Shown here: one piece after another, positions 1,410 to 17,874 of the stretch
Layout: each line of letters opens with the position of its first letter
How positions within the stretch are numbered: the first letter of the stretch is position 1
Assembly (NCBI GenBank): GCA_016840405.1
Contig: JAEOSK010000034.1
Location: 1 to 28,034, forward strand
Length of the DNA: 28,034 bases
Direction: 5' to 3'
Source of the DNA: Candidatus Hermodarchaeum yapensis
Lineage (GTDB): Archaea; Asgardarchaeota; Hermodarchaeia; Hermodarchaeales; Hermodarchaeaceae
Made by a program: the position numbers and the translations under genes
Notes under the pieces: model-generated
The model's input: only the letters and a program-made list of their open reading frames with translations
What the model was told of the DNA's origin: nothing
Database searches by the model: none

Positions 1410-2747
1410 TTACTTGTGGGGTTCTTTCACACCATCGATAGATGATGGACCGCTACCAAGAATAACGATCTTCCCGCCGGATGCATCGTCTTCACCCGAC
1501 CTCATTGTTGGATAATTTTTTCCCTGATTTTCCACCCCAATCGTTTCAGGGGATTGACCAGGGTTGATACTATCCGTCCCATTACGGGAAGGTAGATTTC
1601 CAAGACGCCGCCAGAGGCTCCATGCATGCACACGACGATTGTGTGTCAGCTCGTTGATCTTTCTTCCTTCAATTGGTTCAAGAACCAACGATTTTAGCTC
1701 CCGAAGGTGCTCGTGGAAACCCTGTCCACGGCGAGCAACAACAAGCGCTGCCGCTTGGTGAACTGTGACATGATAAAAAGGGGCGTACTTCCATTTTCCA
1801 ATGATGGATGTAAAAGCTGGATTAACAAATCGAACCTGTAGTTTGTCTCGAAATGCACGACGTTGAACCGCAGTGAGAAATTTTTGATGTGCGAATTTGT
1901 GTTGATTGGCTCGTCCACGGGCTACATCCCTTAATCGTTCAAGAACTAGACCTCATCTCCAATATTTAGCAAATCGGACTACTTCTTTGGCGAGATTTCC
2001 AATTAACCACTCTCTCTTACCTTTGCGTGCTGAAGTCAATGAAGCGCAAAGAATTGTGTGGGTTGCCTTCAATTGACCTTGGGAATTAGTCACACTCAAG
2101 TCAATTGTTGAGTGGTTGAAATCTATACCAACCGCTCCTTTTTCAAATCCTACACATTCATTATTAGTTTCTTCACAATTTACTCGTAGCTCGTAGGTTT
2201 TACCTCTTCGTAGTATTCTTACTCCATAAGCTCTGTCCCCAAAAAGAATATCAAGTGTATGAGGAAGATAAGCTGGAATTCTTATCCAACTTCTAAATCC
2301 GTTATTCACACGCAAGTGATGTTTTCCTTCTTGCTACTCAAATCGTAAATTTAGATTTCCTTTTTTAGCTTTTTCACCACGAGAATATAGCGGGTTGTTT
2401 CGAATTGCACGCCACTCAGACTTGGATAGTTGACCTTTTTTAAGGCTAATTAGATTTCTTCGACCTCCAAAGATTACCTTTGATGGTGTTTCTAATTGTC
2501 CTGATTTGACACGAAATATTGCTGCCTTAAAGGCATCTATTGCCCTGAAGTATCCGCATCGTCGGTAAAGCGAATTCAATTGTGGAAAAAAGGATTTTAG
2601 AGATGCTTCTATTTCAGATTGAGTTTTTTCATCACAGATTCGCTTGTATGCAAAACGGATACATGCTGATTGGTGGCGCATAAGTTCATCTAGTATCCTA
2701 GCTTGTCTAGAATTTGGGAAAAGCTTACCACAAATTGTGGTTTGCAT
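1410..2747 (-). pseudogene. tnpB: IS200/IS605-family TnpB-related RNA-guided nuclease, interrupted by two in-frame stops (TAG 2334-2336, TGA 1953-1955)
   Basis: ORFs 2334..2747, 1953..2315 and 1410..1688 are in one frame (446 codons in total). Motifs: MQTTICGKL, LYSRGEKAKKGNLNLRF, RuvC-I GAVGIDFN, RuvC-II LVLERL, VNPAFTSIIGKWKY, VHQAAALVVARRGQG. Confidence 0.9.
1420..1591 (-). ncRNA. putative omega-RNA (reRNA) scaffold overlapping the tnpB 3' end
   Basis: Nested minus-strand stems with G-U pairs: CTTCCCG/CGGGAAG, GGATAGT/ATTATCC, CCCTGGT/ATCAGGG, CCCC/GGGG, then CCATC/GATGG. This is the position expected for a TnpB guide RNA. Confidence 0.55.
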
Positions 2748-2977
2748 CGATCAAGCACTTCCTCCGTCACCATTCTCTTTTGGTGAAGTGCTTTAAACTA
2801 AAAATTTAATTCATTGACGAGATCCTAGTTTTTGATTCAGTTCATTCGGAGTTAAAAAAAACCGTTGGGGTAACCTAGATTCGCTTAAGTGTTTCCATTC
2901 TTCGGAGGAACAGAAACCGGTGGGGAAAAGCGATAGCCAAAACCAATAAAAAGGGGTGGCGGGTTGAATTGCTCCGT

Positions 2978-3052
2978 GCGCTGTTGGTCTAGTGGCTAGG
3001 ACTCCAGCCTGCCACGCTGGGTGCCCGGGTTCAAATCCCGGACAGCGCACCA
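2978..3052 (+). tRNA. tRNA-Gly(GCC), intronless, CCA encoded
   Basis: GCGCTGT TG GTCT AGTGGCTA GGAC T CCAGC CT GCC AC GCTGG GTGC CCGGG TTCAAAT CCCGG ACAGCGC A CCA. Confidence 0.97.
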
Positions 3053-3086
3053 TTCCATCCAATTTTTTCCTGTGTCGGTGTTGCAG

Positions 3087-3476
3087 GTGCGAAGTCGAGG
3101 GAGTAGTCGATGGCGGACAACGGTAATGAATCACCTCCAGACTTTATTCCGACAGGCTGAAGACGTGGCTCCACAAGATCCTGCACTTGCTCAGCGATAT
3201 GTTCAGATGGCACGACGGATAGTCATGCGGACACGTATCCGACTCCCATCAGATCTTCGACACCGATACTGCCATCGTTGCGAGCACTACTTACGCCCTG
3301 GCGTTAATTCTCGTATCAGATTACGCACGACAGGTCGCAATGGGTCGACTGTAATCACGTGTTTATCCTGTGGGTATCGACGGAAAATCATATGGAAACG
3401 ACCGAAAAAAGAAACGCAAAAAGAAAAATCCAATCACGTGTCAAAACGAGGAAAGAAAATTGCCGTCAAAAGATGA
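3087..3476 (+). CDS. rnp4: ribonuclease P protein component 4 (Rpp21/Rpr2)
   Basis: LAQRYVQMARRIVMRTRIRLP, zinc ribbon YCHRC...PG...CLSCG. Start is GTG 3087 (GGTG SD) or ATG 3126. Confidence 0.92.
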   Translation: MRSRGSSRWRTTVMNHLQTLFRQAEDVAPQDPALAQRYVQMARRIVMRTRIRLPSDLRHRYCHRCEHYLRPGVNSRIRLRTTGRNGSTVITCLSCGYRRKIIWKRPKKETQKEKSNHVSKRGKKIAVKR

Positions 3477-3717
3477 TATCGCCCGAATCTGGGCGGATGA
3501 AAAACCTGCAGTTCGAATTGGGAAGGAAGGTTTAGATGCAGGTATCATTGAAGAGGTTAAACGTCAATTGAAGCGACAGAAGGTCATCAAAGTGAAGTTC
3601 CTTCGATCCATGACCCTCTCTAAGAATATTGATGAACTGGCTGCTGAACTGGCAGCGAAGACTTCCAGCGAAGTATGGGGACGCCGGGGATTCGTTGTTG
3701 TGTTGGCACGCCGCTGA
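3460..3717 (+). CDS. yhbY: YhbY/CRM-domain RNA-binding protein
   Basis: PAVRIGKEGL...IIEEVKRQLK..KVIKVKFL...RGFVVVL; conserved position between rnp4 and rps19e; TTG start inferred from GAGG SD. Confidence 0.9.
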   Translation: MPSKDDIARIWADEKPAVRIGKEGLDAGIIEEVKRQLKRQKVIKVKFLRSMTLSKNIDELAAELAAKTSSEVWGRRGFVVVLARR

Positions 3718-3764
3718 CAATGAAAAAGCCGAATAGTACTAAAATTGACAGTTTAAATGCCTAA

Positions 3765-4043
3765 GATCGATATTCTTTTCCTAATCAAAAATGTGCTCAA
3801 ATTGTGGTTTCATCAAATCGGAGTTACCATTATCAACACGGACGTATCGCTGCGAACAATGCGGATTCACTGCTAATCGGGATTTAAACGCCAGTTATAA
3901 CTTATACACTGTCGCCGTGAGTCTCCCGGAGACACAAAACGCCTGTTTTGAGGCAGGAGGTTGCAGACCCCTTGGGTCAGTGCCTGTCAGTGATGCAGGA
4001 ACCGAACGGAAAACCATAAGGGTGTCATAAGTTTCGGATGACG
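3765..4043 (+). mobile_element. tnpB: truncated tnpB remnant (C-terminal zinc ribbon, RuvC-III and right end) of an IS200/IS605- or IS607-type element
   Basis: ORF 3791..4030: CSNCG...LPLSTRTYRCEQCGFTANRDLNASYNL, preceded by degenerate DR-x-FP codons; the rest of the gene is absent. Confidence 0.85.
3911..4043 (+). ncRNA. putative TnpB omega-RNA scaffold with K-turn
   Basis: Stems GTCTC/GAGAC, CCTGT/GCAGG, GGCAGG/CCTGTC, GACCC/GGGTC, CCGAA/TTCGG. TTGA (3948-3951) opposite AGTGATG (3989-3995) forms a C/D-type kink-turn. Confidence 0.6.
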
Positions 4044-16048: not shown

Positions 16049-16375
16049 TTACTCTTCTTTTGCTTCCTCTTCTTCCTCGATTTCTTCAAGGGGAATCGGG
16101 GGTGGAGTCGTCAGCATCGTCCAGCCAATCCAAGCCACAATGAAGAGCACCAGCATAATCGCCAGCCACATCGGAATCGCAACGGCGAAATAGGGCTCAA
16201 CCAGAACTGGAATCCAGAAGAAGAATTGCCACCACGGATGAGCGGTTGGATATGCACCAGTTGGATTGACAGAGTAGAACATGAACGGGTAAACAAGAGC
16301 CCAATAGGTGTAATAAAGTACGACTAGAATCGAAAAGAGGAGAATGAGGAAACCATAGATTTTATCTCGTGCCAT
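16049..16375 (-). CDS. two-TM DPM2/PIG-P-like glycosyltransferase accessory protein
   Basis: DKIYGF...YYTYWALVYPF...HPWWQFF...YFAVAIP...GWTMLTTPPP plus acidic tail; motif order matches eukaryotic DPM2 and PIG-P as recalled. Confidence 0.75.
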   Translation of the reverse strand: MARDKIYGFLILLFSILVVLYYTYWALVYPFMFYSVNPTGAYPTAHPWWQFFFWIPVLVEPYFAVAIPMWLAIMLVLFIVAWIGWTMLTTPPPIPLEEIEEEEEAKEE

Positions 16376-16540
16376 AGTAAGTAACCCCTTCTATGAGGGA
16401 ATCTGCGACTGCCTTGCTAATGTCTTGTTATTAAGTCTTACCCACAAGCAGCCCAGATATAACAAAGACAGCCTAACTTTCAAATAAATACTTATGGCCA
16501 CTTTGTTACATTGAGGCTGTGAACGTTGGAACGGTCTAAA

Positions 16541-16705
16541 GTCAACTACCACTGATTGAAATCGGTGGTTTGTACATCACATCCTGCGGTGGTTGGACGC
16601 GGTACGTCTGGGTGGTTGACCGCACCCCGGATCCGCTGCGATCTACGTCAACGGGTCACGGTCACGCCTGCGCGAGAGATGGGCAGGAACCGGGTTGGTG
16701 TGGCT
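16541..16705. ncRNA. stand-alone structured RNA with IS200/IS605 terminal hairpin (HEARO/omega-RNA-like); strand unresolved
   Basis: GC-rich intergenic island. GTCAACTA-CCACTGAT-TGAA-ATCGGTGG-TTTG; GTCAACTACC/GGTGGTTGAC 10-bp closing stem; long hairpin CCGCAC-CCCGG...CCGGG-TTG-GTGTGG; K-loop on the minus strand. Confidence 0.6.
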
Positions 16706-16806
16706 AGAGGTTCTTTTCGCCAGAGCGTATTTAAACTCATAGAGTAAGTTGGGAGTGGTCAATTCCTCCACTGTCTGAAGGTAGTGGTCTCCTTGACCTG
16801 GTTCTC

Positions 16807-17874
16807 ATGAAGGCACTCATTCTAGCTGGAGGCTCTGGTACGCGCTTACGTCCCTTAACGTGTACTCGGTCCAAACAACTCCTTCCGCTCGCCTCCTCCA
16901 CCCTCATTGGATATATGCTCGACCGCCTTCATGATGCTGGCATCTCTGAAGTGATCCTTGCGATAGGACCTGGACTTGACGATCTTCAAGAATCGCTGGG
17001 TGATGGCTCCAATTATAGCATCACTCTGCACTATTCCCTTGAAACACAACCCCTTGGAACAGCAGGGGCAATCAAACATGCAGAACAGCATTTTCGCAAG
17101 GACCAGTCGTTTTTAGCCCTCAACGGTGACATCGTATCCAACATCAACTATACTCAACTCATACAATTCCATGAACAACAACAAGCCATTGCAACAATAG
17201 CCCTTTATCGAGTGGAAGACCCCAGCCGATTTGGCGTCGTTGAAATCGATTCAGAAAGGCGCATCCACAACTTCGTCGAAAAACCCGACCCTCGACACGC
17301 TCCTAGTAATCTAATTAACGCAGGGTGTTACGTCCTCGAGAACACAGTGCTAGAGCATATTCCTGCAAGTCAAGAAGTTTCAATCGAACGGGAAGTTTTT
17401 CCAGCTCTGTGTAAATCTACCAAAGTCTTTGGATGGGAACATCATGGAATTTGGGTCGATACAGGCACACCCGAATCTTTTCTCAAAGCCCAACAAGCAC
17501 TGGTAACAGAAACGGCTCAAATTCCATTAATAGGTGCAAAAACAAAGATTGCCCCATCTGCCATTATTGGGAAAAATGTCACTATCGGTAAACGAGCCAG
17601 AATAGGTCCTAACGCCCATATCAATGATGCAGTGCTGTTTGATGACGTAATCATTGGGGCCGGCGTCACCATCGAGCAATCAATCATTGGACAAGGCGCA
17701 GTGATAGGAAAAGACCTCCAACTCAAAAAACACGTCATCGTCGGGGATGGGGCAATCATTGACTCCGGCGCCAATATTCCTCCGGGCGCGCTCATCTGTC
17801 CTCAATACCATGTGAAAAAAGGTGAAACCCCACCACCCTGCTTTGTGAAGAATTACAAGTCACTCACTGTCTGA
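16807..17874 (+). CDS. NDP-sugar pyrophosphorylase (mannose-1-phosphate guanylyltransferase-like) with left-handed beta-helix domain
   Basis: MKALILAGGSGTRLRPLT, PLGTAGAI, LNGD, FVEKP, INAGCYVL, SIEREVFP, WVDTGTP, hexapeptide repeats. Confidence 0.9.
   Translation: MKALILAGGSGTRLRPLTCTRSKQLLPLASSTLIGYMLDRLHDAGISEVILAIGPGLDDLQESLGDGSNYSITLHYSLETQPLGTAGAIKHAEQHFRKDQSFLALNGDIVSNINYTQLIQFHEQQQAIATIALYRVEDPSRFGVVEIDSERRIHNFVEKPDPRHAPSNLINAGCYVLENTVLEHIPASQEVSIEREVFPALCKSTKVFGWEHHGIWVDTGTPESFLKAQQALVTETAQIPLIGAKTKIAPSAIIGKNVTIGKRARIGPNAHINDAVLFDDVIIGAGVTIEQSIIGQGAVIGKDLQLKKHVIVGDGAIIDSGANIPPGALICPQYHVKKGETPPPCFVKNYKSLTV

Follow-up and report, generated by a model that had tools for sequence, protein, structure and literature searches.

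Is a GC-rich, structured stretch of DNA that adjoins no transposase or nuclease gene a guide RNA gene in its own right, or is it a part of a mobile element? This question is raised by a locus in a 28,034-nt archaeal DNA sequence (the whole stretch that was analysed, hereafter the window). The window belongs to a genome of 77 contigs with a completeness of 86% (G000). An initial annotation, made from the sequence alone, had proposed a HEARO/IscB-like RNA at 16541-16705, stand-alone and possibly domesticated, and had left its strand open. The motifs on which this proposal was based were located where it had placed them, namely GTCAAC-TA-CCACTGAT-TGAA-ATCGGTGG-TTTG at 16541-16574, GGTGGTTGAC at 16611-16620 and a CGCGTCC/GGATGTG stem within the GC-rich stretch. 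They are also beyond chance: in a structure conserved across 26 related sequences, the hairpin is helix 4, the GTCAAC/GTTGAC closing helix is helix 2 and the CGCGTCC stem is helix 3. Likewise, the GC-rich island (GC up to 0.63 at 16575-16724 versus approximately 0.39-0.45 in the flanks), the TATA-like elements on both sides (16482-16498 and 16728-16738) and the lack of an adjoining tnpA, tnpB or iscB gene were borne out, and the IS200/IS605-type end architecture had been recognised correctly.

It is highly probable that window positions 16541-16806 constitute a gene-less, non-autonomous derivative of the IS200/IS605 family (IS605-type, with tnpA and tnpB), i.e. a PATE or, more loosely, a MITE. 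PATEs are gene-less derivatives of IS605-type transposons (PMC3119063), and the 266-nt element is an ordinary member of this already described class. The features of the locus are summarized in Table 1.

Table 1. Features of the element and its surroundings, in window coordinates.
Feature	Position	Strand	Basis or remark
DPM2/PIG-P-like small membrane protein gene	16049-16375	-	divergent neighbour of the nucleotidyltransferase gene
TATA-like element native to the spacer of the DPM2-like and nucleotidyltransferase genes, split from the ATG by the insertion	16482-16498	+	ATAAATACTTATGGC kept at orthologous loci
Guide position, if the module were transcribed as omega-RNA	16521-16540	-	ordinary flank older than the insertion, same at the G002 and G005 empty sites
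Whole non-autonomous IS200/IS605 derivative (PATE/MITE), 266 nt, without target duplication (highly probable)	16541-16806	-	empty sites; full-length copies at other loci with 74-86% identity
Right end / predicted TnpB-type omega-RNA scaffold module, 135 nt, ends GTTGAC	16541-16675	-	common to gene-less copies and tnpB-bearing ISs; covariation; matches of model R1 3' of tnpB homologues
Helix 2, long-range, 3' strand GUUGAC pairing with GUCAAC at 16615-16620	16541-16546	-	96% of cells paired; GUUGAC also right-end cleavage motif
Helix 4, near-terminal right-end hairpin CCACCGAT-TTCA-ATCAGTGG	16548-16569	-	compensatory change in 7 of 8 pairs
Helix 3 (CGCGTCC/GGATGTG stem)	16572-16605	-	compensatory change in 9 of 10 pairs
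Helix 1, hairpin of 17 bp	16622-16667	-	4 pairs switch both sides between two subgroups; compensatory change in 14 of 17 pairs (26 sequences)
TATA box GAGTTTAAATA (TATTTAAACTC on the plus strand)	16728-16738	-	invariant in all four gene-less copies (alignment)
Left end with near-terminal hairpin (GGTCAA/TTGACC outer stem, CCACT/AGTGG inner stem)	16756-16806	-	76% identity over 55 nt (TCAT flank counted) to the left end of the G013:C208 IS; DNA fold
Target/TAM TTCAT, directly 5' of the left end; ATGAA on the plus strand is the nucleotidyltransferase start codon plus two bases	16807-16811	-	5' flank TTCAT in four copies, ATCAT in the full IS
Intact sugar-phosphate nucleotidyltransferase gene, 355 aa, start codon abutting the left end of the element	16807-17874	+	Pfam NTP_transferase 1.9e-56 plus hexapeptide repeats

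The insertion site and the boundaries of the element

The element sits in the 431-nt spacer that separates two divergent genes. In relatives this spacer splits at about 16539/16540. The part from 16381 to about 16498 (to 16539/16540 in G002 and G005) is syntenic in most genus members, and in a search of relatives 16540-16806 matched unrelated loci in three other genomes only. At the orthologous locus the element is missing in all six genus members examined, two of which (G002 and G005) have clean empty sites. The empty site of G002 reads GGTCTAAG joined directly to ATGAAGG and that of G005 GGTCTAAA joined directly to ATGAGG, versus GGTCTAAA, positions 16541-16806 and ATGAAGG in G000. The flanks are 92-93% identical between G000 and these two genomes, and the junction is intact without the 266 nt. 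Both sites are scarless and lack a target-site duplication, as for PATEs. Since two relatives have clean empty sites and four further members do not contain the segment, the 266-nt unit represents an insertion without target duplication. Excision of IS200/IS605 elements is scarless as well. Therefore, the empty sites alone cannot tell insertion in G000 from excision in the relatives, but past mobility of the element is implied by them.

The filled form was found at identities of at least 99% in estuary DNA contigs from two runs, which represent two independent samples. A DNA contig from run X7, approximately 89% identical, skips 16533-16807 and has 7 other letters in between; this contig stems from a relative and adds no more than agreement with the empty sites.

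Of the extent originally given for the feature, the left boundary proved to be exact. The right boundary at 16705 is arbitrary, because the conserved RNA/right-end module comprises 16541-16675 and the inserted unit extends to 16806. On the minus strand the order is TTCAT, left end, TATA box, a segment private to gene-less copies and the right end, which closes with GTTGAC. The element has no inverted repeats at its termini (GAGAAC... and ...GTTGAC) and carries a palindrome near each end (hairpins at 16548-16569 and within 16756-16798). The inner hairpin of the left end comprises 5 bp in the window copy versus 8 bp in the G013 copies, which may be a sign of decay. With 266 nt the element is non-coding and too short for a transposase. 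Its open reading frames are interrupted in other copies, and substitutions are distributed as 14/13/15 over the codon positions, i.e. there is no coding signal. A 63-aa frame on the plus strand, with a Trp_halogenase match below the cutoff (E 0.004), and a 42-aa frame on the minus strand were both rejected as small proteins, since they contain stops in other copies and have no codon-position bias. In the lack of terminal inverted repeats, the near-terminal palindromes, the missing target duplication and the transposase-less length, the element resembles PATEs from Haloquadratum walsbyi (PMC3119063) and Geobacillus stearothermophilus (PMC10055086).

Copies of the element and a tnpA/tnpB-bearing relative

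A DNA search of the own genome revealed a 79% identical copy of 16540-16811 on contig C58 of G000, again abutting an ATG. The similarity between the two copies begins at AGTCAAC and ends at the ATG of the downstream gene. Other full-length copies are located on G005:C315 (86%) and G013:C315 (74%), and right-end-only remnants were detected in addition. In G000 the copy number is low (2 copies and 1 fragment). Missing syntenic conservation had been named by the initial annotation itself as a finding against the proposed RNA, and many scattered, near-identical copies as the mark of an ordinary MITE. Syntenic conservation is missing and copies are scattered, and the element is therefore MITE-like, though low-copy and diverged (74-86% identity).

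Two of the remnants deserve a description of their own. G000:C58:54037-54082 is a degenerate right end of approximately 46-75 nt (46-nt match in the search of the own genome), which ends with GTAGTTGAC and has no adjacent tnpB. On G005:C315 (L027) a right-end-only remnant (2598-2732) and the full gene-less copy (3633-3899) share one orientation, with a gene for a small GTPase (Ras/Arf-like; 2858-3604) between them. Directly next to the full copy is the start codon (ATG) of a PcrB (GGGP synthase-like) gene. Positions 2598-3899 of this contig could represent a composite or nested arrangement.

The parent type of the element is found in G013. On contig C208 of this genome, homologues of 16541-16650 and 16756-16806 are located approximately 1.5 kb apart and bracket a complete element of approximately 1.69 kb, which carries divergent genes for tnpA (Y1_Tnp, 7e-38) and a 379-aa TnpB (Cas12f1-like_TNB, 1e-18; OrfB_IS605). 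The nearest solved relatives of this TnpB are TnpB/Cas12f chains. Identity to the window element is 82% over 112 nt for the right end and 76% over 55 nt for the left end. Homology of the ends to a tnpA/tnpB element is another property shared with PATEs. In the complete element the same 112 nt overlap the 3' end of tnpB, so that the hairpin-TAGTTGAC on the minus strand had rightly been read as a TnpB-type right end. A second tnpB with the same right end downstream is present on G013:C47.

A cognate TnpA that could mobilise the element in trans, as expected for a PATE, was not found in the 86% complete assembly of G000. Searches with PF01797 and with the G013 TnpA protein revealed no Y1 transposase there, while control genomes matched. 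A search for a nuclease elsewhere in G000 had been suggested by the initial annotation. With the G013 TnpB protein no close TnpB was found, but nine distant TnpB-like loci were. The closest of these genes share about 30-36% identity with the parent-type TnpB over roughly the C-terminal half. On the window contig neither this protein search nor the covariance model R1 (see below) reported anything outside 16541-16675. Repeats are often lost from such assemblies, which has to be considered for the missing tnpA and tnpB. Present mobility and RNA use of the element in G000 are unsupported.

The best TnpB-like loci of G000 are C42:57984-58719 (L061) and C9:14182-14925 (L063), with open frames of 295 and 265 aa. 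Each is followed by a weak R1 match (27 bits) on the same strand. Both loci look like shortened representatives of a related TnpB/omega-RNA clade.

The right-end module and its predicted structure

The last 135 nt of eight copies (four gene-less, two tnpB-linked and two right-end-only remnants) were aligned with MAFFT. Four helices with 41 pairs emerged, in which 93% of the cells are paired, and four pairs in helix 1 are fully switched. On neither strand did the single sequence fold better than its shuffled versions (z +0.65 and -0.64); hence, the structure emerged from the comparison of copies only. A covariance model, R1, was built from these eight sequences, including the window copy, and was used to search 151 genomes of the phylum. 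Matches were found in 14 of them. The window copy has the top score of all copies (153 bits), as an input sequence of R1. Ten of the 18 distant matches coincide with the 3' end of a tnpB homologue encoded in the same orientation; two of these ten follow the TnpB-like genes on C42 and C9 of G000. This linkage to tnpB is independent of any bias from model fitting. In the resulting alignment of 26 sequences, 92% of the cells are paired versus 28-49% in slid controls, and compensatory changes occur in 32 of 41 pairs; this alignment was fitted to the model, so that the counts are somewhat inflated. A conserved structure backed by covariation, as expected for an omega-RNA, is thus visible in the fitted alignment as well as in the independent MAFFT alignment.

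The strand of the module is the minus strand, as indicated by the tnpB linkage and by 87 G-U versus 30 A-C cells in the 26-sequence alignment, which was fitted to the model. In the parent-type ISs on G013:C208 and C47 it has the orientation of tnpB and extends over the 3' end of this gene and the right end of the IS, and the ten distant matches mentioned above are located likewise; in the window tnpB is deleted. From this comparative evidence, the module is predicted to be the omega-RNA/right-end region of one archaeal TnpB clade. Helix 4 probably doubles as the hairpin that TnpA recognizes in single-stranded DNA, and the helices could in part reflect such constraints on ssDNA rather than on RNA. 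A read-length contig (157 nt) from a wetland metatranscriptome, 90% identical, covers 16534-16676. Neither strand nor ends can be read from it, and it may stem from DNA carry-over. Run X16 covers the neighbouring gene only; the RNA runs were searched in small shares.

Comparable RNAs are the archaeal 'sotRNAs' at the 3' end of IS1341-type tnpB genes (PMC4615843). As in these and in the ISDra2 TnpB RNA, the module of the parent IS overlaps the tnpB 3' end and the right end on the same strand. As in TnpB reRNAs, a multi-helix scaffold stops at the transposon boundary, so that a guide would be copied from the flank. Unlike at TnpB reRNA loci, tnpB is deleted in the window element, and no curated Rfam model matches the predicted scaffold. 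By analogy to the known TnpB mechanism (PMC10055086), the guide would correspond to 16521-16540. The sequence ACGGTCTAAA at 16531-16540 belongs to the native flank, and the empty sites of G002 and G005 contain it in almost the same form. It predates the insertion, was not selected as a guide and lies on the strand opposite to the guide on a TnpB-type reading.

With HEARO RNA (IscB omega-RNA) the module shares the character of an IS200/IS605-associated guide-RNA scaffold. HEARO is located upstream of iscB and has its guide at the 5' end. In contrast, a module of the type seen in the window lies downstream of tnpB and carries its guide position at the 3' end. IscB was noticed neither at the copies nor in the parent IS, the loci inspected for it. 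Rfam searches of 16350-16850, at the gathering threshold and at E<=10, gave no match to HEARO or any other family; the search at E<=10 returned a meaningless 22-nt match to psRNA14 (E 8.9), and a tRNA elsewhere. The assignment to HEARO was therefore rejected, since no covariance model matches and the parent element encodes TnpB with the module 3' of its gene. The K-loop (GGCGTGACCGTGACC) described earlier falls into the 5' strand of helix 1, where copies read GCATGGCTGTGGCT without the GA dinucleotides. These are replaced in four to five of the eight copies, and, with no Rfam match either, a K-turn or H/ACA-type sRNA with an L7Ae site was discarded.

Two other functions have to be weighed against a transposon end. 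A stand-alone, domesticated HEARO/omega-type guide RNA gene that acts in trans with a nuclease encoded elsewhere would fit the structurally intact scaffold with its top score against R1, the TATA box upstream of the module on the minus strand and the nine distant TnpB-like loci of G000, two of them followed by weak R1 matches. Moreover, PATEs often encode omega-RNAs that are thought to require TnpB in trans (Meers et al., PMC10055086), and the window element shares such a scaffold. Nevertheless, a domesticated RNA is very improbable: syntenic conservation is missing, copies are scattered, and left end, right end and TAM are intact as in a mobile unit. The guide position is pre-existing flank rather than a selected target, the TnpB-like genes of the own genome are at most 36% identical to the parent type with RNA regions of 27 bits against R1, and neither HEARO nor any other Rfam family matches. 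On the plus strand, a riboswitch or cis-regulatory 5' leader of the nucleotidyltransferase gene could be suspected, since the GC-rich, structured sequence immediately precedes the ATG and G000 has a similar sequence in front of another gene. Such a leader is effectively refuted by the empty orthologous sites: none of the six relatives examined has the sequence upstream of the orthologous gene. It also occurs upstream of unrelated genes and inside an IS, the G-U versus A-C counts and the tnpB linkage point to the opposite strand, and no Rfam riboswitch or other family matches. Consequently, we retain the non-autonomous transposon, with the module as its right end.

Target, start codons and TATA boxes

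A conserved short target precedes the left end, as in PATEs (TTCAT in four copies and ATCAT in one, the full IS), and the right end of every copy has GTTGAC or GTTGAT as its last six bases. On the opposite strand TTCAT reads ATGAA. Therefore, gene-less copies are found at start codons in three of four cases, namely at the genes for the nucleotidyltransferase, an octopine-DH-like protein and the PcrB protein; the fourth abuts a 6-codon frame only. According to a rough count, G000 contains 10,565 TTCAT sites, of which 176 (about 1.7%) coincide with the first start of an ORF of at least 100 aa and 1,331 lie outside such ORFs. Sites at start codons thus make up about 12% of those that are not inside long ORFs, again as a rough count. 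Since the left-end flank is known for only five insertions (the full IS plus the four gene-less copies), an enrichment at start codons is suggestive at best.

All genus members examined retain the motif ATAAATACTTATGGC in the orthologous spacer between the divergent genes; at 16482-16498 it probably represents the native TATA region that the DPM2-like and the nucleotidyltransferase genes have in common. The insertion moves it to a distance of approximately 310 nt from the ATG and places the nearly palindromic TATA box of the element approximately 70 nt upstream of the ATG. An identical 11-mer is present in the full IS between tnpA and tnpB, 22 nt before the ATG of tnpB. Since the exact word shared with the IS promoter region is only 11-13 nt long (E ~0.3) and could not be extended, a shared origin of both is only suggestive. 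The TATA box at 16728-16738 may serve as a promoter for the RNA module on its left and for the host gene on its right. A putative donation of a promoter to the nucleotidyltransferase gene would be a reasonable side effect of the insertion.

These findings allow an extension of the transposon explanation, in which the element is an exapted relic, kept because its TATA box is now the putative promoter of the nucleotidyltransferase gene and of other abutted genes, with the RNA module as a passenger. The separated native TATA region, the invariant TATA box at about the same distance from the ATG in all gene-less copies, the start codons abutted by three of these four copies in spite of the rarity of such TTCAT sites, and the filled allele in two independent estuary samples are in agreement with it. 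However, the sample comprises five insertions, purifying selection against intragenic insertions already enriches sites at gene boundaries, and read-through from the native promoter could equally maintain expression of the gene. We regard exaptation as possible but rather unlikely. Clearly less probable still is a family of start-codon-seeking, promoter-delivering PATEs, which the TAM would direct exactly to Met-Lys start codons. The TATA box would then drive the host gene in one direction and an omega-RNA in the other, with what used to be the 5' region of the gene as the guide. One of the distant TnpB-like proteins of G000 could use this RNA in trans to guard or regulate the promoter region.

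For the non-autonomous transposon itself, we propose the following course. A Y1 TnpA supplied in trans, now missing or unassembled, would have moved the element as single-stranded DNA and inserted it immediately 3' of TTCAT against the nucleotidyltransferase start codon, without target duplication. Insertion 3' of the target without duplication is the behaviour of the single-strand 'peel-and-paste' Y1 transposase TnpA. The internal TATA box would drive the module leftward and yield the scaffold plus a 3' guide taken from the flanking bases (from 16540 downward), and the same box would probably provide a rightward promoter for the nucleotidyltransferase gene. A cognate TnpB loaded with the module RNA would cut the donor joint that excision leaves behind (TTCAT plus flank). 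Donor-joint cleavage is the way in which TnpB assists transposon retention in IS200/IS605 elements (PMC10055086).

The element resembles the systems of the IS608/ISDra2-type TnpA (Y1 HUH) in its insertion 3' of a target of 4-5 nt, the missing duplication, the scarless empty site and the imperfect hairpins near both ends; in addition, the right-end motif TTGAC resembles the target TTCAT. The known targets are TTAC for IS608 and TTGAT for ISDra2, and TTCAT differs from both. Unlike in IS608 and ISDra2, a transposase was not found in the incomplete genome. In contrast to the PATEs of H. walsbyi and G. stearothermophilus, the host is an uncultured sediment archaeon from another lineage. For a methyltransferase encoded nearby, the nearest atlas cluster is most frequent in Thermoproteota, which is a weak hint to a possible placement there. 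The family also differs from known PATEs by its low copy number, the divergence of its copies, the retained internal TATA box and its TAM, TTCAT, by which copies tend toward start codons.

The main value of this analysis is a correction: a seemingly orphan, "domesticated" guide RNA belongs to a small non-autonomous transposon, of which it forms the right end. The PATE class has already been described in haloarchaea and Geobacillus. Here, an archaeal PATE family is documented with exact boundaries, TAM, empty sites and parent IS, and a covariance model is gained for the predicted omega-RNA of one archaeal TnpB clade outside Rfam. The coincidence of TAM and ATGAA together with the retained TATA box provides a small, testable idea on how insertions at gene starts may be tolerated.
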